A DNA stretch of 64,000 nt. It comes from an uncultured Gammaproteobacteria bacterium. Lineage in GTDB: Bacteria > Patescibacteriota > Patescibacteriia > UBA11705 > JABHMO01. The stretch covers positions 275 through 64,274 of the forward strand of contig CAZMEQ010000005.1 of the NCBI GenBank assembly GCA_964565345.1, read 5' to 3'. Position 1 is the stretch's first letter. The number at the start of each line of letters is the position of its first letter. The position numbers and the translations under genes were made by a program. A model generated the notes under the pieces. That model worked only from the letters and a program-made list of their open reading frames with translations. It searched no databases and was not told where the DNA came from. Positions 15,673 to 52,364 of the stretch are shown here, piece after piece.

Positions 15673-16011
15673 ATGATCCTGTTTGTCGATGATACTCCAG
15701 ACATCCTGCAATTGTACGGTGCCCTTGCTCATGGGCTTAAACACCGAAAGGAGTCTTGTCCCAAGGAAGCTCTGTCACACCTCCAAAGCAACCCCGCTAG
15801 AGTAATCGTCACAGATTACCAAATGCCTGGAATGAGTGGCAAGCAGTTTATCGCTGCTGCTCGCAACTATTGTCCAAACGCCAGATACATCATGGTCACA
15901 GGGACTCCGCCTGATCACTTTGCCGACAACGAGCGCCCCGATGAGCTCATTACCAAGCCCTTTGATGTACTCGCCCTACGCTCCAAGCTTAAGGCACTAG
16001 TCTCTCACTAG
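15673..16011 (+). CDS. stand-alone CheY-like response-regulator receiver domain
   Basis: 112 aa; VDDTPD acidic pocket, phospho-acceptor Asp in VIVTDYQMPGMSG, conserved MVTGT and TKPF Lys. About 50% GC versus about 33% in flanks. Confidence 0.7.
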   Translation: MILFVDDTPDILQLYGALAHGLKHRKESCPKEALSHLQSNPARVIVTDYQMPGMSGKQFIAAARNYCPNARYIMVTGTPPDHFADNERPDELITKPFDVLALRSKLKALVSH

Positions 16012-30795: not shown

Positions 30796-31413
30796 TCAAG
30801 CGGTCCGACTTTCGCAGTGCAGTGGCAGCAAGCGCGGTATGTTGAAATCTCCGCCATTGAAGTGCAGCCCCTGGTCGAAGAGCTGAAGTCGTTCGTCACA
30901 CCGCAACTCCACTAGAATGCGCGTTTCCAGCGCATTCTTTTCGATTACGTGAACGCGCTCTTGTCCTATCGTCTCCATCAAGGTGGAAACATGCAGTGGG
31001 TTAGGACGGCTCCACTGAAGAAGCAAGAGCTGACTACGCCTCTGCAGTTCAGTTGGAACCCGATCGGGCAGAAGAAGCAATATGCGGCGCCGGTCTTGCT
31101 GGTAGATGACCATCTGAACCAGGCGTATTGCTCCGATCTCGTTGTAAGGGACTGGTAACTGATGCGGACCGGTGTAGGTGACACGTTCTCGATTGTGCAA
31201 CGGGAAGGCCCGGCACAACTCTGCTTGGGTTGGGTAGCGTGATGCTGCACCCGTGTCGTGTGCGTACACTACCAGTAGCTTGTTCCTGGTGTCGCTTAGT
31301 CCAAAGCAGATGTAGGAACCAACAAAGCGCACCATGACCTTGCTTGTCATGAACAAGGCCCAGAACGCGCTTGAAAGTTGCACGGGTGTGGCAGCAGGAT
31401 CTGAAACGTTCAT
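30796..31413 (-). CDS. hypothetical protein with DTGA (retropepsin-like) tetrapeptide
   Basis: 205-aa ORF in a 55% GC segment; AGGAGG SD 6 nt upstream; TTGACA-17-TATGCT promoter upstream; only recognisable feature is VVYAHDTGAAS. Confidence 0.45.
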   Translation of the reverse strand: MNVSDPAATPVQLSSAFWALFMTSKVMVRFVGSYICFGLSDTRNKLLVVYAHDTGAASRYPTQAELCRAFPLHNRERVTYTGPHQLPVPYNEIGAIRLVQMVIYQQDRRRILLLLPDRVPTELQRRSQLLLLQWSRPNPLHVSTLMETIGQERVHVIEKNALETRILVELRCDERLQLFDQGLHFNGGDFNIPRLLPLHCESRTA

Positions 31414-31483
31414 GCCACCCTCCTTTCGAACAGTCCTAATTTAAGCATAAGGAGTAAGTGCTTTGTTGTCAAAAGATTATCCA

Positions 31484-31525
31484 CGAAAAAAATCTCCCCC
31501 CAAGGAACTCGGTCCTTGAGGGGAG
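31484..31525 (-). terminator. minus-strand terminator of the 511-aa GC-rich gene
   Basis: CTCCCCTCAAGGA-ccgagt-TCCTTGGGGGGAG hairpin followed on the minus strand by TTTTTTT. Confidence 0.6.
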
Positions 31526-31545
31526 GGTGACGGACTAGATGGGAG

Positions 31546-33081
31546 CTACTTGCGCTTGCTCCCGGAGACCAGCAGGGCGCCGTCCTTGCCCAGGGTCTCG
31601 TCGATCTCGCCGGTGGCGGAGAGGAAGGCCTCGAGGGTCTGACCCTCGGGCGTCGCCTTGTACGCCTGCGCGGCGTCGGCCTTGGCCTGTTCGACCTGGG
31701 TGACCCAGCGGCGGGTCAGCCAGTCGTAGGCCCAGGGGGTGGTCTTCGCCTGGAAGTTGGTGCGCGCCGCGTGCATGGCCAGCACCTGGTCCACGATCGA
31801 CTCGTGCACGACCAGGTAGCGCCAGCCCACGTCGCGGAAGCTGCGGCGGATGACCATGAGGCTGAGCCTCGGGGTGGCCTTGGCGTCCTTGGCGCGGTCT
31901 CGGAGCTGCTGGACGAAGCGGAGGTGGTCGGAAACGTCCTTGGGGGGACGCACGGCCAGCTCCACGTCGTACACGCCCTTGAACCGCTTCCAGCGCGGCT
32001 CGAACTCCTTGACCTCGCCCTCGGTGGGGAGCATCAGGAGCTCGTGCGACTTGGCCTCGTCGAGGCCCGCGGTCCAGACCGGCGCCTTGAGCGGGGACGT
32101 GTAGCTGCCGAGCTGCTGCTCGGTCAGCCAGTTGTCCGCGTTGTCCAGCGCCTCGATGGCGTTGCCGACGGCCGTCTCGCGGCGGGCCTTGCGGTCCTCC
32201 GCGGCGCGGGCCGCCTTGCCTTCGTCGATCTGCCGCTTGTAGCCGGCGCAGAGCCGGTTCCAGGCGGTGCGCAGCGGCATGACCTCGACGATCACGTCGC
32301 TGTTGCCCGCGAACTTCGCCTTGGCCGCCGTGGCCGCGATGGCCAGGTGCTCCTCGCAGAAGATCCGGGCGACCGTGGTGTTCTCCTTGGTGTTGCTGAT
32401 CACGAGCACGAAGGCCGTGTCGATGACGAGGGAGCCCTTGTGTCCTCCGGCGAAGCACATCTCGCACCGGATCAACACCCCGCGGATGAACAGCGCGTTC
32501 TGGGGCACGCCGCCTTCCGGCAGCTTGTCCCAGATGTCGCGGATCTGGGCGGGGTTGGTCAGGACCAGCGGCTCGCCCTCGAGACCCAGGTCCAGGGGGA
32601 CCTGGGTACGGGGGGCCATCACGGGAGCCTTCTGGACGGTGACCTTCGCGGTCGGCTTGCGCTCTTCGCACTTGCCGCCACACTCGCTGGTGCCGCACTT
32701 GCCGGCGGCGCAGCACGGGGGCTGCTCGGCCTTGGCGCTCAGCTCGGTGCTGAGTTCCTCTACCGTGCGACCCTGCTTGGCCAGGGCGCGCGCGAGCGCG
32801 TCGCCCATGACCGTGCCAGGGAGGCGGGGGCCGGTGGCGGCGGGTGCCGCGCACTTCTTGGCCTTCTTCTCCGGGGCCGGGGCGGGCGCGGGGGTGGGCT
32901 CGGGCAGGTTGGAGATGGCGGCGTTCAGGACGATCTCGGCGATGGAGCTGTTCAGCCCCGCCGCCTTGAGCGCGTCCTTCCCTCCGTCGACGATCTTCTT
33001 GGCGTCGTCGAGACCGGCCATGGCGAGCTTCCGAATGGTCGCTTCGCCGATTCCCTTGGTGCTGCTGAGCTTGTCGAACAT
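31546..33081 (-). CDS. hypothetical protein, N-terminal HhH-like motif, Pro/Ala linker, Cys cluster (about 70% GC)
   Basis: 511-aa ORF with strong GC3 bias; CAAGGAGG SD upstream; GIGEATIRKLAMAGL HhH-like, PAPAPAPEKKAKK linker, CCAAGKCGTSECGGKC. Other frames here are Arg/Gly-rich GC artefacts. Confidence 0.55.
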   Translation of the reverse strand: MFDKLSSTKGIGEATIRKLAMAGLDDAKKIVDGGKDALKAAGLNSSIAEIVLNAAISNLPEPTPAPAPAPEKKAKKCAAPAATGPRLPGTVMGDALARALAKQGRTVEELSTELSAKAEQPPCCAAGKCGTSECGGKCEERKPTAKVTVQKAPVMAPRTQVPLDLGLEGEPLVLTNPAQIRDIWDKLPEGGVPQNALFIRGVLIRCEMCFAGGHKGSLVIDTAFVLVISNTKENTTVARIFCEEHLAIAATAAKAKFAGNSDVIVEVMPLRTAWNRLCAGYKRQIDEGKAARAAEDRKARRETAVGNAIEALDNADNWLTEQQLGSYTSPLKAPVWTAGLDEAKSHELLMLPTEGEVKEFEPRWKRFKGVYDVELAVRPPKDVSDHLRFVQQLRDRAKDAKATPRLSLMVIRRSFRDVGWRYLVVHESIVDQVLAMHAARTNFQAKTTPWAYDWLTRRWVTQVEQAKADAAQAYKATPEGQTLEAFLSATGEIDETLGKDGALLVSGSKRK

Positions 33082-49302: not shown

Positions 49303-49704
49303 TTACTTATTATATTTTTGATATGAAATTGAGAATAGTTCGACAAAACCAAGTAAGACAATTAAAACAGTTAAATTCCACCATGTTAAAAAGCGTTGAC
49401 TTTGGAGTAAAAGAGCAACCACAAGTAAAATAGTAAACAGAACCGCTTGTCGTGAAGCCACTTTAACATGTTTGTAGGGCAAATCATCTTTATTTAATAA
49501 TATTCGGATTAAATAACCAATAAAAGAAAAGGTGCCCAGCAAAGCTAAAATAAGACTAAAATAAAAAAGCAGTAAGGCCAAGAGACCACCACTTTGTGGC
49601 GTCATAAACATAAGAACAGCGCCCCAGGCCAACCAACACAACATTGTCCCCAACCCTAAAATCAAAAAAAATTTACCTACGCTCATATGATAGTATTCTA
49701 CCAT
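49303..49704 (-). CDS. hypothetical 4-TM membrane protein
   Basis: Four hydrophobic helices; first ATG 49704 (ORF-track TTG 49710). Confidence 0.4.
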   Translation of the reverse strand: MVEYYHMSVGKFFLILGLGTMLCWLAWGAVLMFMTPQSGGLLALLLFYFSLILALLGTFSFIGYLIRILLNKDDLPYKHVKVASRQAVLFTILLVVALLLQSQRFLTWWNLTVLIVLLGFVELFSISYQKYNK

Positions 49705-49774
49705 AATCAAGTAGTGTTTTCAACCTAAAAAAACACCCCGCCAACCGACTCGGTCGGTAGCAGGGTTTGACTTG

Positions 49775-50113
49775 TCAGGGACGCGGCGGGTAGTGCGTCG
49801 CACGTTGGCGAGTGTCCTCGATGGCCTCCGCCAGCTCGCCGAGATTGGTCGGCATCTTGGTAAGATTGCGGAAACGCACCGGGAGACGCAAGTTGCACCC
49901 CCCACAGCACAGGACCATATTCTGATCGGTGATCTTGTGGGGACGCATCGGTCCGCCACAGTACGGCTTGTGAAAAAGCCAGTACGGACCATCGATGGGA
50001 ATGGAGAGCCATTCCGCCTTCTGCTCACGACCGACCATGATCTCGAAGCTACCTTCGTCATCCGGAACATCCGGCAACATGCACTCGGCCACGACGACCC
50101 TATTCGATTCCAT
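49775..50113 (-). CDS. Cys-rich small protein (112 aa), hypothetical metal-binding
   Basis: ATG at 50113 preceded by AGGGAGG (5-nt spacer); motif PYCGGPMRPH...VLCCGGCNL; the competing plus-strand frame starts with TTG and is Arg-rich. Confidence 0.45.
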   Translation of the reverse strand: MESNRVVVAECMLPDVPDDEGSFEIMVGREQKAEWLSIPIDGPYWLFHKPYCGGPMRPHKITDQNMVLCCGGCNLRLPVRFRNLTKMPTNLGELAEAIEDTRQRATHYPPRP

Positions 50114-50125
50114 TGCAACCTCCCT

Positions 50126-50141
50126 GCGGTCTAAAGACCGC
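50126..50141. promoter_or_regulatory. perfect palindrome GCGGTCT-AA-AGACCGC upstream of the Cys-rich gene SD
   Basis: 7-bp inverted repeat with 2-bp spacer immediately 5' of the AGGGAGG SD; no T-run, so operator-like rather than terminator. Confidence 0.35.
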
Positions 50142-50157
50142 ATAGCAACCTTTATTT

Positions 50158-50481
50158 TTAACTTATTTCTCGATCTTTGTCAAATCCACCAGAAACTATT
50201 CTTAGCTGATTTAAAACACGATTTTTATATTTTTTATTAATTTCTTCTATGAATTTTGACTGTTTGAAACGAATTTCTTGGGCCATGGCTGAATTCTGCG
50301 TTATTATGTTTAAAATTTTATTTTTTATAAATTGTGCTTTGGCCTGTTCTTGCCCTTTTTTACCCCAATATTCCAAAATTAAATTATTAGCCTGTTCAAC
50401 TATAAGACTGGCCTGAACTTGCTTACTAAGAACGCTTCTATTAGCAAAACTTTTAGTTATGATATTTCTTAAACCTTGCAT
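50158..50481 (-). CDS. DUF721 (DciA-like) protein
   Basis: 107 aa; pattern LSKQVQASLIVEQANNLILEYWG...NSAMAQEIRFKQSKFIEEIN resembles DUF721/DciA. Confidence 0.45.
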   Translation of the reverse strand: MQGLRNIITKSFANRSVLSKQVQASLIVEQANNLILEYWGKKGQEQAKAQFIKNKILNIITQNSAMAQEIRFKQSKFIEEINKKYKNRVLNQLRIVSGGFDKDREIS

Positions 50482-50556
50482 ATTGACTCTTTAACGTTTT
50501 TATGATAAATTAATCTGTCCTGTCGTAAAGGACGAAACTTTTTAATGGAGGCTACG

Positions 50557-51177
50557 ATGTCACGCTTCATTTCCCTGCTCCTGGCCTTGTGCCTGACAAA
50601 CCTGCCCTTTCTCGCCCACAGCGAGGAAGTCGAATCCAACGGACAGATCCTCCTGATCGTGGGTCGCAACTTCGCCCCCTTCCAGGTAAGCGAGGGCATC
50701 AGAGGTGCCGTCTACGCGCACATTGGAGCCATGGCCAGTGTACGTGGCAACGCCATGGTCTTTGGGTATGTCGGACCGGAGTTCACCTTTACATCGCAGA
50801 CCAACCTGAAGATGTTGACAGGGACCTGGCTGACCAAGGACGGCGGCATGAGCGCCATCGCCAGCCTCTGGCTGACCCAGCCCTTGCCCGGAGACGTCAC
50901 CGTCTTCTTGGAGGGTGACGCCTACTTCCCGATCGACGGAGACGGCGGGCACCGCCAGCGCAACTACTACACGTTCGTATCGCTGGACTGGTTCCCCAAG
51001 GGCAACGTCGTCGGGCTGGGCGTGGTACAGGAGAACTTCTTCTCGGAGAAGGTCTTCGAGGAAGCGGCCATCGGCCCCTCCCTGCTCTTCGACAAGGGCC
51101 GCATCTGGCTGGCCTACGACATGAGCCCCGACCTGCCCGGCGCGCAGATCTACCTGCGACTCGTCCTCACGCTCTGA
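50557..51177 (+). CDS. secreted beta-rich hypothetical protein
   Basis: GGAGG 5 nt upstream of ATG 50557; signal peptide MSRFISLLLALCLTNLPFLAHS; alternating hydrophobic pattern. ORF-track ATG 50545 is also possible. Confidence 0.5.
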   Translation: MSRFISLLLALCLTNLPFLAHSEEVESNGQILLIVGRNFAPFQVSEGIRGAVYAHIGAMASVRGNAMVFGYVGPEFTFTSQTNLKMLTGTWLTKDGGMSAIASLWLTQPLPGDVTVFLEGDAYFPIDGDGGHRQRNYYTFVSLDWFPKGNVVGLGVVQENFFSEKVFEEAAIGPSLLFDKGRIWLAYDMSPDLPGAQIYLRLVLTL

Positions 51178-51183
51178 ACCTGC

Positions 51184-51218
51184 TCCCATACCCGACACCG
51201 GGTGTGGGAGCTATTTTT
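51184..51218 (+). terminator. rho-independent terminator inside island C
   Basis: CTCCCATACCCG-acac-CGGGTGTGGGAG 12-bp stem followed by CTATTTTTAT. Confidence 0.6.
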
Positions 51219-51227
51219 ATCTAAATA

Positions 51228-51256
51228 TTGACAAATTCATTAAAATATAATAATAT
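51228..51256 (+). promoter_or_regulatory. consensus-like sigma70 promoter TTGACA-17-TAATAT in an AT-rich patch within the GC-rich island
   Basis: ttgacaaattcattaaaatataataatat; followed by palindrome GCTGACGAA-gt-TTCGTCAGC (51268..51286) and a GGAGGA SD before ATG 51318. Confidence 0.5.
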
Positions 51257-51317
51257 ATAGCCAGTTTGCTGACGAAGTTCGTCAGCATTTTCGGTAGCCG
51301 CTTGAACGGAGGAATCC

Positions 51318-51719
51318 ATGAAGCGCATCGTCCACTCGCTGTTCGCCGTCCTGGTGCTCCTCGGGCTCTCCAACACCGCCATCGCGGGCGGTGGGCCGCC
51401 CCAGACCTTCGCCGACTACAAGTACCTCGCCGAGCAGTACATCACCCCGCAGATCGCCTACTTCAACCTGACGGGCGAGCTGCAGTACTGGTCCGAGACA
51501 CCTTGCGTGGGCTGGACCAACATGACGGACAACCTGCAGTACTACTTCGAGTACGAGGCGCAGTTCCGCAGCGCCGCCGCGCAGGCCGTCACCGCCAACA
51601 GCTGGGCCATCAAGTACGCCCTGAAGACCGGCGAGAACCTGGCCGTGGTGCCGACCTACAAGCTGAACCGCCTGAAGGCGCAGCAGAAGCTCGCGCTCAT
51701 GGACCAGTGGCACGCCTAG
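51318..51719 (+). CDS. secreted hypothetical protein (N-terminal part of an interrupted gene)
   Basis: Signal peptide MKRIVHSLFAVLVLLGLSNTAIAGG; GC3-rich; ends at TAG 51717..51719 and continues in the same frame at 51720. Confidence 0.5.
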   Translation: MKRIVHSLFAVLVLLGLSNTAIAGGGPPQTFADYKYLAEQYITPQIAYFNLTGELQYWSETPCVGWTNMTDNLQYYFEYEAQFRSAAAQAVTANSWAIKYALKTGENLAVVPTYKLNRLKAQQKLALMDQWHA

Positions 51720-51722
51720 TTC

Positions 51723-52310
51723 ATGACGTTCTACGCCGAGACGGCGTGGGGTCTCCGCACCTTCTACTGCTCGACCGAGCAGATGTGCGTGCAGCCGCCC
51801 CAGCCGCAGACCAGCAAGGTCTACGTCAACAAGACCTCGGTCACCCCGCAGATCGTCTACGGCGTGCACCGGCACCTCTTCGGCTTCAACCTCTCGATGA
51901 ACTCGGACGGCGCGATCTACTCCGAGGACGGGCTGCTCTACATGGTCGACCTCTCGGTCATGATGACCGGGGACGCCTTCGAGCAGCTCACGAACTGCAC
52001 CCTCGAGACGAACGACGGCTTCGCCTTCGTGCTCGACACCGCAACGCCCTACTTCGTCGAAGAAGTCGGCGGTGCGCGGCTGACATTCAAGCTCGACGAT
52101 CCGTACGTGATCCCCGAGAACACGACGCAGGGCTTCAACGTCTTCTGCCAGATCAACCCGCCCGTGCAGGAGTACAGCTACATCGAGATCGGCTTCATGC
52201 CGACGCTCGGGACCGGGCCGATCAACGCGATCCTGGTCCAGGGGGCCAACACCAACTGGCAGTTGGAGGTCACCCCCAACATGCACATCTCGACGGTGCT
52301 CACGAACTGA
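51723..52310 (+). CDS. hypothetical protein, in-frame continuation of 51318..51719 after a single TAG
   Basis: Same reading frame and same GC3 bias as the upstream ORF; no SD of its own; six N-x-S/T sequons across the two parts. Confidence 0.45.
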   Translation: MTFYAETAWGLRTFYCSTEQMCVQPPQPQTSKVYVNKTSVTPQIVYGVHRHLFGFNLSMNSDGAIYSEDGLLYMVDLSVMMTGDAFEQLTNCTLETNDGFAFVLDTATPYFVEEVGGARLTFKLDDPYVIPENTTQGFNVFCQINPPVQEYSYIEIGFMPTLGTGPINAILVQGANTNWQLEVTPNMHISTVLTN

Positions 52311-52322
52311 CCCCGCGGCCAC

Positions 52323-52356
52323 GCCGCATGACGCCACGCAAACACAAGTTTGCGTG
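52323..52356. terminator. bidirectional rho-independent terminator
   Basis: GCCACGCAAAC-acaa-GTTTGCGTGGC followed by TCTTTTTT; sits between the island C end and the stop of the minus-strand helicase. Confidence 0.65.
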
Positions 52357-52364
52357 GCTCTTTT

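Follow-up and report, generated by a model that had tools for sequence, protein, structure and literature searches.

Phage morons, the concept linked with Hendrix and Juhala, are reportedly autonomous promoter-ORF-terminator units of deviant composition that sit inserted between conserved genes. The hypervariable, or flexible, genomic islands of marine streamlined bacteria are replaced by recombination through conserved flanks. Here we describe a short GC-rich gene, found in the window (the whole stretch of 64,000 nucleotides that was analysed), whose arrangement recalls both of these systems, and we compare it with its relatives at the same chromosomal site.

The gene is a minus-strand ORF at 49775-50113 that encodes 112 amino acids. 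It has a GC content of 59% (GC1/2/3 = 0.60/0.44/0.73) and lies between an upstream dciA gene of 29% GC (GC3 0.21) and a downstream gene of 34% GC for a 127-aa membrane protein; the host genes on either side have GC3 values of 0.21-0.37. Third-position composition in the window is bimodal, and the jump at this gene is far beyond the host range, because 54 host ORFs fall at GC3 0.21-0.39 and six outlying ORFs at 0.55-0.98. A preliminary description had singled out a lone GC-rich gene wedged between AT-rich neighbours, and these figures bear it out. The features of the unit and its immediate context, all on the minus strand, are the following.

49303..49723, minus: context, downstream conserved flank; gene for a 127-aa four-helix membrane protein (49303-49686) with its own promoter, the promoter being conserved across loci
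49727..49765, minus: intrinsic terminator, predicted as a GC-rich hairpin CCCUGCUACCGACCGAGUCGGUUGGCGGGG followed by U7 (-27.4 kcal/mol, z = -2.8)
49775..50113, minus: coding sequence, 112 aa plus stop, for a small cytoplasmic protein with a putative H-x3-C...C-x2-C zinc ribbon (homologues, AlphaFold2 model, dN/dS, periodicity)
50119..50125, minus: Shine-Dalgarno sequence AGGGAGG, 5 nt upstream of the ATG at 50113
50125..50142, minus: perfect 8-2-8 palindrome, TGCGGTCT TT AGACCGCA on the coding strand, in the 44-nt leader and abutting the Shine-Dalgarno sequence
50154..50183, minus: promoter-like site with a -35 box TTGACA (50183-50178), a spacer of 17-18 nt and an A/T-rich -10 box (TAAAAA/AAAAAT), 10/12 matches
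50158..50481, minus: context, dciA (DUF721, 107 aa; PF05258, E = 4.4e-7), host composition, immediately upstream

Coding status and start codon

The gene is coding and under purifying selection that is 3-5 times weaker than on its neighbours, because codon-position periodicity, in-frame indels and dN/dS all agree. Within the 112-aa ORF GC3 exceeds GC1 and GC1 exceeds GC2, and indels among the homologues keep the frame. In three pairs of homologous loci dN/dS is 0.20 (L012-L023), 0.23 (L003-L008) and 0.27 (L001-L022), against 0.04-0.08 for dciA, uvrD and the membrane gene in the same pairs. The deposited protein (P0001, NCBI) is given as 122 aa, with a start at ATG 50143 in the flank of the palindrome. 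The alignment of the homologues begins at a shared ME.. start, each protein behind its own Shine-Dalgarno sequence, so the deposited start is probably wrong; 112 aa appears the better call, and the corrected start codon is a small gain for annotation. The AGGGAGG already reported in the preliminary description was located at 50125-50119, 5 nt before the ATG, and a GGAGG-type sequence is found at identical spacing in every homologue.

In AT-rich genomes, islands of high GC often turn out to be structured non-coding RNAs, and both the leader and the terminator fold well here while the high GC leaves several frames open, so that the island could be read as such an RNA with the ORF as a by-product of its composition. 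We give this reading next to no credence: an Rfam scan returned nothing at the unit (a tRNA-Trp was the sole match in the window), every locus carries a strong and correctly spaced Shine-Dalgarno sequence, and the periodicity, the in-frame indels, the dN/dS of 0.2-0.27 and the invariant His and Cys ligands described below are those of a protein.

The encoded protein and its family

An exact word-indexed search recovered the deposited copy alone, while exhaustive HMMER searching of 1.84 billion representatives turned up nine small relatives, all genuine and 26-56% identical, and a profile search brought in P0019 as a further one. Four large repetitive proteins from the exhaustive search (P0008, P0011, P0012 and P0016) were rejected on inspection as low-complexity artefacts. 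The family now comprises about 15 distinct sequences of approximately 100-125 aa. Searches against Pfam, NCBIfam, PHROG and PADLOC gave no family model and returned sub-threshold zinc-ribbon noise alone; for four family members PADLOC gave no family at E <= 0.1. The preliminary description had been unable to name a family, and the Pfam, NCBIfam and PADLOC libraries likewise contain no match.

Six residues (Gly21, His48, Cys52, Cys70, Cys73 and Arg76) are invariant in 10-13 sequences that share 26-51% identity, and Pro17, Pro50, Gly54, Leu68, Pro88, Leu94 and Leu98 are nearly so. Four of the invariant residues form two candidate metal-binding knuckles, His48-x3-Cys52 and Cys70-x2-Cys73, which are invariant in 10 sequences; their codons lie at 49970-49972 (His48), 49958-49960 (Cys52), 49904-49906 (Cys70) and 49895-49897 (Cys73). 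In L003 and L018 the unit adjoining the membrane gene is a second type of paralogue that lacks Cys52. The metal site had earlier been sought in a CGGP/CCGGC arrangement. Those motifs are present and metal binding is plausible, but the conserved ligands are the His48-x3-Cys52...Cys70-x2-Cys73 set; Cys69 and the glycines of the two motifs vary, and the apparent 'CC' is really x-Cys70.

An AlphaFold2 run with a 10-sequence alignment gave a model with pLDDT 86.5 and pTM 0.77, in which strands are predicted at residues 5-12, 22-28, 45-49, 55-60, 65-70 and 76-80 and helices at 29-37 and 91-105. The ligands are bracketed by strands 45-49/55-60 and 65-70/76-80, with the ligand geometry read from this secondary structure. 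A zinc-ribbon arrangement is modelled because the predicted strands place His48/Cys52 and Cys70/Cys73 at two beta-hairpin turns. Far more variable elements lie on either side of the conserved core, beta-beta-alpha at the N terminus (mean pairwise identity 29%) and a helix at the C terminus (31%), against 45% in the ribbon itself, and the family alignment contains no conserved stretch of 7-10 columns. Since the pI spans 5.1 to 10.1 over the family (net charge -4 to +9), there is no uniform charge signature of nucleic-acid binding. A signal peptide is absent in the family.

Comparison with known structures returned weak neighbours below threshold that recur and are all zinc ribbons, namely eS27, Elf1/ELOF1, Lar and the eIF2beta ribbon. 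When the PDB was searched by sequence, neither the protein itself nor the family profile reached an E-value below 0.16 (eS27 chains reached E = 0.16-0.8 against the profile), and Foldseek gave nothing below E = 0.13 against the PDB and BFVD. The best partial fold match was the eIF2beta ribbon, with an rmsd of 1.7 over 32 columns and E = 2.3. The Lar family TIGR03655 scored 15.7 bits (E = 0.014) against a cut-off of 39.6 bits, matching residues 50-81 alone, and homologues scored 16-17 bits against Elf1 NF011482, for which the cut-off is 109. The ZAS anti-sigma domain, an all-helical domain with a contiguous H-x3-C-x2-C motif, was considered and ruled out, as the two ligand pairs lie 17 residues apart here and within beta-strands. 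The product is probably a small orphan zinc-ribbon protein of a new, unnamed family with a clear putative ligand motif.

Expression signals and the leader palindrome

The -35 box TTGACA is built from dciA codons (..F-D-K..) and the -10 box overlaps the dciA stop codon. The pattern TTGACA-N17-TAAnAn is kept in all loci that bear the zinc-ribbon gene. In 10/10 loci the Asp codon within the -35 box is GAC, against 27% of host Asp codons, which is suggestive only because the loci are not phylogenetically independent. We infer a conserved internal promoter of the unit within the last dciA codons. The gap between dciA and the zinc-ribbon gene, 35-54 nt, contains no terminator, and it also allows read-through from dciA. 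Each homologous unit ends in a hairpin and a T-run whose sequence differs every time, and beyond it the membrane gene has an extended -10 promoter, TTGAAA-N17-TG-TAGAAT (49723-49695), that is conserved in all loci. By these signals the island is one autonomous transcription unit with a predicted promoter, a 44-nt leader and strong Shine-Dalgarno sequence, a 112-codon ORF and a terminator.

In the leader, a perfect 7-2-7 palindrome lacking a T-run had been described and likened to an operator. The palindrome is there, with its core GCGGTCTAAAGACCGC perfect at 50126-50141, and it extends to 8-2-8 with no T-run after it. The likeness to an operator did not survive: a scan of the window for members of a regulon, allowing up to 2 mismatches, returned the site itself and no second copy in the 64 kb, and the palindrome is absent from ten orthologous leaders, appearing as an insertion of about 10 nt relative to L001 and L022. 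By itself it is weak evidence because such inverted repeats are common in the window, where 59 perfect ones (arms >= 7 bp, loops 0-6) were counted against 44 +/- 9 in block shuffles. GC-rich inverted repeats are enriched (12 vs 2.8) and lie mostly within the GC islands.

Folding gives the palindrome hairpin -11.5 kcal/mol and the leader z = -2.7. Among 11 folded leaders, those of the window and L001 alone beat shuffled sequences, with different structures; the leaders of L012 and L023 have in common a small hairpin by the Shine-Dalgarno sequence that is unlike the one in the window, the remaining leaders have nothing, and the orthologous leaders have no structure common to all. We read the palindrome as a putative 5'-leader RNA hairpin private to this strain and not as a conserved operator. 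If the promoter is used, the hairpin would lie within about 25 nt of the mRNA 5' end, and as a 5'-proximal stem-loop it would most likely affect mRNA stability or access to the Shine-Dalgarno sequence.

The model suggested by the preliminary description, in which the protein is a metal-sensing or DNA-binding regulator that represses its own gene, and possibly a regulon, through a palindromic operator, has the conserved metal site of the protein in its favour, along with a perfect 8-2-8 palindrome between a putative -10 box and a Shine-Dalgarno sequence, the classic operator position. It appears quite improbable nonetheless, given that the palindrome occurs just once in the window, is of a size that is common among the inverted repeats there, and is missing from all orthologous leaders, including that of a strain with flanks of about 90% identity. 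The protein also has no helix-turn-helix or other known DNA-binding domain in Pfam or NCBIfam, and the variable net charge of the family counts against the model as well.

A fixed site with variable copy number

Relatives of the gene were found on the contigs of P0019, P0017, P0006, P0010, P0009 and P0014, and further loci came from a close dciA variant, a scan of GTDB genomes for the membrane protein and a scan of metagenomes. Named relatives are Parcubacteria group bacterium GW2011_GWA2_40_23 and a Candidatus Kuenenbacteria MAG. The gene order uvrD - (GC-rich orphans) - dciA - zinc-ribbon gene(s) - 127-aa membrane gene - proS - mreB/C/D - PBP2 - greA recurs wherever enough flank is available, across ten or more independent Kuenenbacteria- or Parcubacteria-related assemblies. 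Among loci with enough context, the family is restricted to one site directly after dciA in Kuenenbacteria-like Patescibacteria, a group of tiny bacteria with AT-rich genomes. Most loci have a single copy, L003-L007 have two in tandem, L018 has three, and the Kuenenbacteria bin.190 locus has none, the spacer between dciA and the membrane gene being 90 nt there. Across lineages the unit has a GC3 of 0.48-0.80 and the flanks 0.17-0.39, the unit always being richer. The single AT-rich member, L017, is a stand-alone promoter-ORF-terminator unit found elsewhere, beside a metallophosphoesterase gene, and its GC3 of 0.35 is still above that of its surroundings (0.20-0.25).

A GC3 of 0.73 in a genome with a GC3 near 0.30, together with a high-identity match limited to the deposited copy, could also point to a recent one-off transfer from a GC-rich donor or to an assembly chimera, the gene being a passenger without a lineage-specific history. 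A chimera or contaminant is very unlikely because identical junctions recur across independent NCBI, JGI, ENA and Logan assemblies. This recurrence is an indirect answer to the two doubts raised in the preliminary description, that the protein might be a piece of a larger contaminant gene or that reads might lack the island. The explanation as a whole is very improbable, as ten or more assemblies, independent of one another and drawn from different samples and lineages, carry a homologue at this site, the 1.8 billion representative proteins contain one AT-rich stand-alone copy as the only homologue out of context, and the promoter, Shine-Dalgarno sequence and terminator are all of host type. 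Moreover, in the pair L012-L023 the zinc-ribbon gene has a dS (0.62) equal to that of the flanks (0.62-0.76), which fits vertical descent.

Exchange of the unit between strains

The window and L001 (Logan SRR27710297) share about 88-90% DNA identity over uvrD, the 210-aa gene, dciA and the membrane gene, whereas blastn gave no alignment of the zinc-ribbon unit. At the protein level the two loci are 97% identical in DciA, 88% in the 210-aa protein and 50% in the zinc-ribbon protein, and pS in the zinc-ribbon gene is 0.76 (saturated) against a flank dS of 0.32-0.53. The relation is reversed between L001 and L022, in which DciA is 66% and the zinc-ribbon protein 81% identical, with dS values of 1.07 for dciA and 0.39 for the zinc-ribbon gene. 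In sliding windows of identity the relationships swap near the dciA stop codon and swap back just past the terminator, so that in the membrane gene identity to L001 has returned to 90-97%. Homologous recombination through conserved flanks thus replaces the unit as a whole between lineages, over a stretch that runs from about the dciA stop codon to shortly after the terminator, and the 3' end of dciA holds both the -35 box of the unit and one recombination breakpoint. The preliminary description's view of a discrete single-gene cassette holds: its composition is foreign and it behaves as an exchangeable unit.

This replacement of whole units argues against a tightly co-evolving partner of DciA, and so bears on the main rival explanation, a DciA-linked role in replication, for which adjacency is the one line of support. 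In that explanation the protein would be a lineage-specific partner of DciA, co-expressed with dciA and acting at helicase loading, and it could replace the zinc-binding module often carried by helicase- or primase-associated proteins. The zinc-ribbon gene is on the same strand as dciA and immediately downstream of it in all loci with enough context, with the short terminator-free gap given above; this strict adjacency holds even where DciA identity drops to 37-48%, and the DciA encoded here is minimal at 107 aa. The synteny of the whole region is conserved in any case, however, so that adjacency is little informative. The gene is absent from the bin.190 locus, where dciA and the membrane gene are retained, and elsewhere it exists as 2-3 tandem paralogues. 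Constraint on it is relaxed, the unit has its own predicted promoter and terminator, and a 97% identical DciA accompanies alleles that are 50% identical, hence no co-evolution. We regard a dedicated role beside DciA as unlikely on these grounds.

Proposed role

As regards mechanism and ALTERNATIVES, the data establish a unit with predicted expression signals of its own, an HCCC protein under constraint, a chromosomal site that is fixed, a variable copy number and allele exchange. The best explanation as a whole, to which we assign a probability of roughly 0.55, is an autonomous and exchangeable zinc-ribbon unit that encodes an accessory, strain-variable binding protein. The protein would bind one Zn(II) and act as a small adaptor or inhibitor. 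Its conserved ribbon, with Arg76, may dock on a shared partner (a nucleic acid or a protein), while the fast-evolving outer elements would set a strain-specific specificity. The role would be accessory, in conflict or interaction at the strain level (with a phage, a host cell or a competitor), and not housekeeping, because presence and absence, tandem expansion, allele swapping and lineage restriction point there. Several points count against this explanation: defence and anti-defence models gave no match, phage homologues were not found among IMG/VR loci or by tblastn against GenBank phages, and with dN/dS below 1 there is no direct sign of positive selection. The strict adjacency to dciA, kept in lineages whose DciA is only about 40% identical, could likewise reflect a link to replication instead of conflict.

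Other GC-rich genes in the window

The outlying GC3 class in the window includes the following genes besides the one described above.

15673-16011: receiver-domain gene
30796-33081: a 205-aa gene and a 511-aa gene
50545-51177: 210-aa signal-peptide gene
51318-52310: 330-aa signal-peptide gene

All of the outliers are orphans in the same family libraries, the receiver domain excepted, and five of the six (the 511-aa gene is left out) combine a host-like AT-rich TTGACA/TTGACT promoter, a Shine-Dalgarno sequence, a GC-rich coding sequence and a terminator of a hairpin and T-run. The 511-aa gene has a single relative, which is 47% identical and adjoins a GluRS gene of 92% identity, and on this comparison it appears to show the same hyper-divergence as the dciA site. 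A phage origin was considered for its product and for the zinc-ribbon protein, and was rejected: there was no IMG/VR locus, and neither protein gave a tblastn match in GenBank phages. The 330-aa unit is absent from L001, and its gene has an in-frame TAG at 51717 in the window where a 99% identical JGI copy has GAG.

The direction of third-position substitutions suggests that the high GC is being kept up and is not simply in decay. Changes from GC to AT per GC site are 2.5-3 times rarer in the GC-rich genes than in flanking host genes of the same strain pairs (9/95 vs 14/64 and 8/134 vs 8/41; pooled p = 5e-4), in small counts polarised by a distant outgroup. Half of the third-position changes in the GC-rich genes, where GC3 is near 0.9, are GC/AT-neutral (mostly G<->C), while in host genes the share is 8%. 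Searches of the protein collections detected no GC-rich donor.

A tentative extension, which we consider doubtful, is that Kuenenbacteria-like Patescibacteria keep a distinct compartment of small orphan genes, six of them here, that are independently transcribed at fixed sites, swapped and hyper-divergent, with their high GC actively maintained. Their GC3, up to 0.98 against about 0.30 in the genome, would then be kept high by selection at synonymous positions or by GC-biased conversion at hot spots of recombination, and would not be a remnant of transfer that is wearing away. If so, the strain-specific interface through which these episymbionts deal with hosts or phages could be encoded in this compartment, whose composition might even hint at the identity of the partner organism. 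Were the pattern general, bimodality of GC3 would be a sequence signature for fast-evolving accessory genes of uncultured CPR bacteria, and it would offer a natural test of the power of selection, or of biased gene conversion, to keep synonymous GC far away from its equilibrium in the genome.

Comparison with known systems

On its own, the protein would simply add to the small orphans with a putative zinc ribbon, and it is the setting that is unusual: a lineage-restricted family beside dciA with 0-3 copies, exchange of the unit, and a GC excess over a genome of about 36% GC. The searchable literature yielded no prior description of DciA with a zinc ribbon, or of GC-rich or hypervariable islands in CPR, Patescibacteria or Kuenenbacteria. 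Like eS27, Elf1/ELOF1, the C-terminal ribbon of eIF2beta and Lar, the protein is small, and in the model it has two knuckles at beta-hairpin turns. It differs in its first knuckle, which is His-x3/4-Cys where theirs is Cys-x2-Cys, and in the additional N-terminal beta-beta-alpha element and C-terminal helix; none of the similarities is significant, with Foldseek at E >= 0.13, HMM searches at E >= 0.003 and bit scores far under curated cut-offs.

As a single ORF in a compact unit that forms tandem arrays of 1-3 in some strains, the island also recalls integron cassettes. It has no conserved attC-like site, however; its 3' hairpins are ordinary terminators of unrelated sequence with T-runs after them, no integrase is among the listed neighbours, and each unit has its own expression signals.

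The likeness to flexible islands lies in the conserved flanks, the highly divergent content and the disagreement between content and flank phylogenies. The unit here is one gene of about 0.43 kb for a putative cytoplasmic zinc-ribbon protein, whereas those islands span tens of kb and carry surface-glycan genes, and the GC excess here is extreme and persistent. With phage morons it has in common a predicted sigma-70-type promoter of its own, one ORF, a factor-independent terminator, a composition unlike that of its neighbours, and a place between two conserved genes with presence and absence between relatives. Unlike a phage moron, it lies in a cellular chromosome among uvrD, dciA, proS, mreBCD, PBP2 and greA with no phage genes nearby; it has no phage homologues in IMG/VR or GenBank, its site is fixed and its alleles are exchanged by homologous recombination. 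By analogy, then, the unit is like a phage moron, or like a flexible island in miniature, but one that is chromosomal, held at a fixed site, persistently GC-rich and allele-swapped.

The set of GC-rich genes

GC content at third codon positions (GC3) is bimodal in the window, at 0.21-0.39 in 54 host ORFs and 0.55-0.98 in six. All six GC-rich ORFs are stand-alone units, each having its own Shine-Dalgarno sequence and a hairpin and T-run terminator, and a TTGACA-type, host-like promoter was found at all five whose upstream region was read (those other than the 511-aa gene). All are orphans with the exception of the receiver-domain gene.

GC3 outliers in the window
15673-16011, receiver-domain gene
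30796-31413, 205-aa gene
31546-33081, 511-aa gene
49775-50113 (minus strand), predicted zinc-ribbon (Zn) gene
50545-51177, 210-aa gene
51318-52310, 330-aa gene

Third codon positions were compared between GC-rich cassette genes and their flanks in three pairs of loci (window/L001, L012/L023 and L003/L008, the L-numbered loci being from other assemblies). Per GC site, the GC-rich genes had changed from GC to AT 2.5-3 times less often than adjoining host genes. Changes that left GC/AT content as it was (mostly between G and C) made up half of all third-position changes in GC-rich genes versus 8% in host genes. Both the rarity of GC to AT changes and the many that preserve GC content suggest that the high GC of these genes is held rather than decaying.

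Signal-peptide genes near dciA

The 210-aa gene, divergent from dciA, was found in every relative examined (L001 1160-1795, L012 3540-4205 and L013 3854-4480), even in L013, which has no Zn gene. Besides a signal peptide, its product contains an alternating hydrophobic strand at the C terminus (..YLRLVLTL); it is 35 to 88% identical among relatives, and dN/dS is 0.17-0.55.

The 330-aa signal-peptide gene is split into ORFs of 133 and 195 aa by an in-frame TAG at 51717-51719, where a 99% identical JGI copy (locus L002, protein P0003) has GAG. The gene could be a pseudogene, the TAG could be an error of sequencing, or it could be read through. The related strain L001 lacks the entire unit of promoter, coding sequence and terminator (window 51216-52362 versus L001 1117-1123), and there the terminator of the 210-aa gene directly adjoins the uvrD stop. 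ATAAAAA, a short A-rich repeat, stands at both ends of the insert.

Variants and possible origin of the Zn gene

In a second, His-rich type of Zn paralogue (L003 8404-8754 and L018 1107-1412), the predicted metal ligand Cys52 is missing. In these two loci this type is always the final Zn unit ahead of the membrane gene, a position that suggests an old tandem duplication in which the predicted metal site was altered. The match of the database protein P0007 (125 aa) to the family extends no further than the first knuckle (..WHKPYCGAPVCVKRVTDQKMVLF), beyond which the sequence is divergent. P0007 resembles a frameshifted copy, and some Zn-family alleles may therefore be decaying. At the dciA 3' end of L013 (4880-5000), the sequence TTGAAA-N17-TAGAAT is similar to the membrane-gene promoter that lies 3' of the Zn terminator in other loci, and from this likeness the Zn unit may be an insertion downstream of an ancestral promoter.

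The 511-aa locus

The 511-aa orphan has a GC content of 69% and a weak helix-hairpin-helix (HhH) match at its N-terminal end. Its sole relative (L024 1141-2652) is 47% identical, and the GluRS gene beside that relative is 92% identical to the GluRS gene of the window. Judged from these sequences, the locus is a second case of hyper-divergent GC-rich content with conserved flanks.
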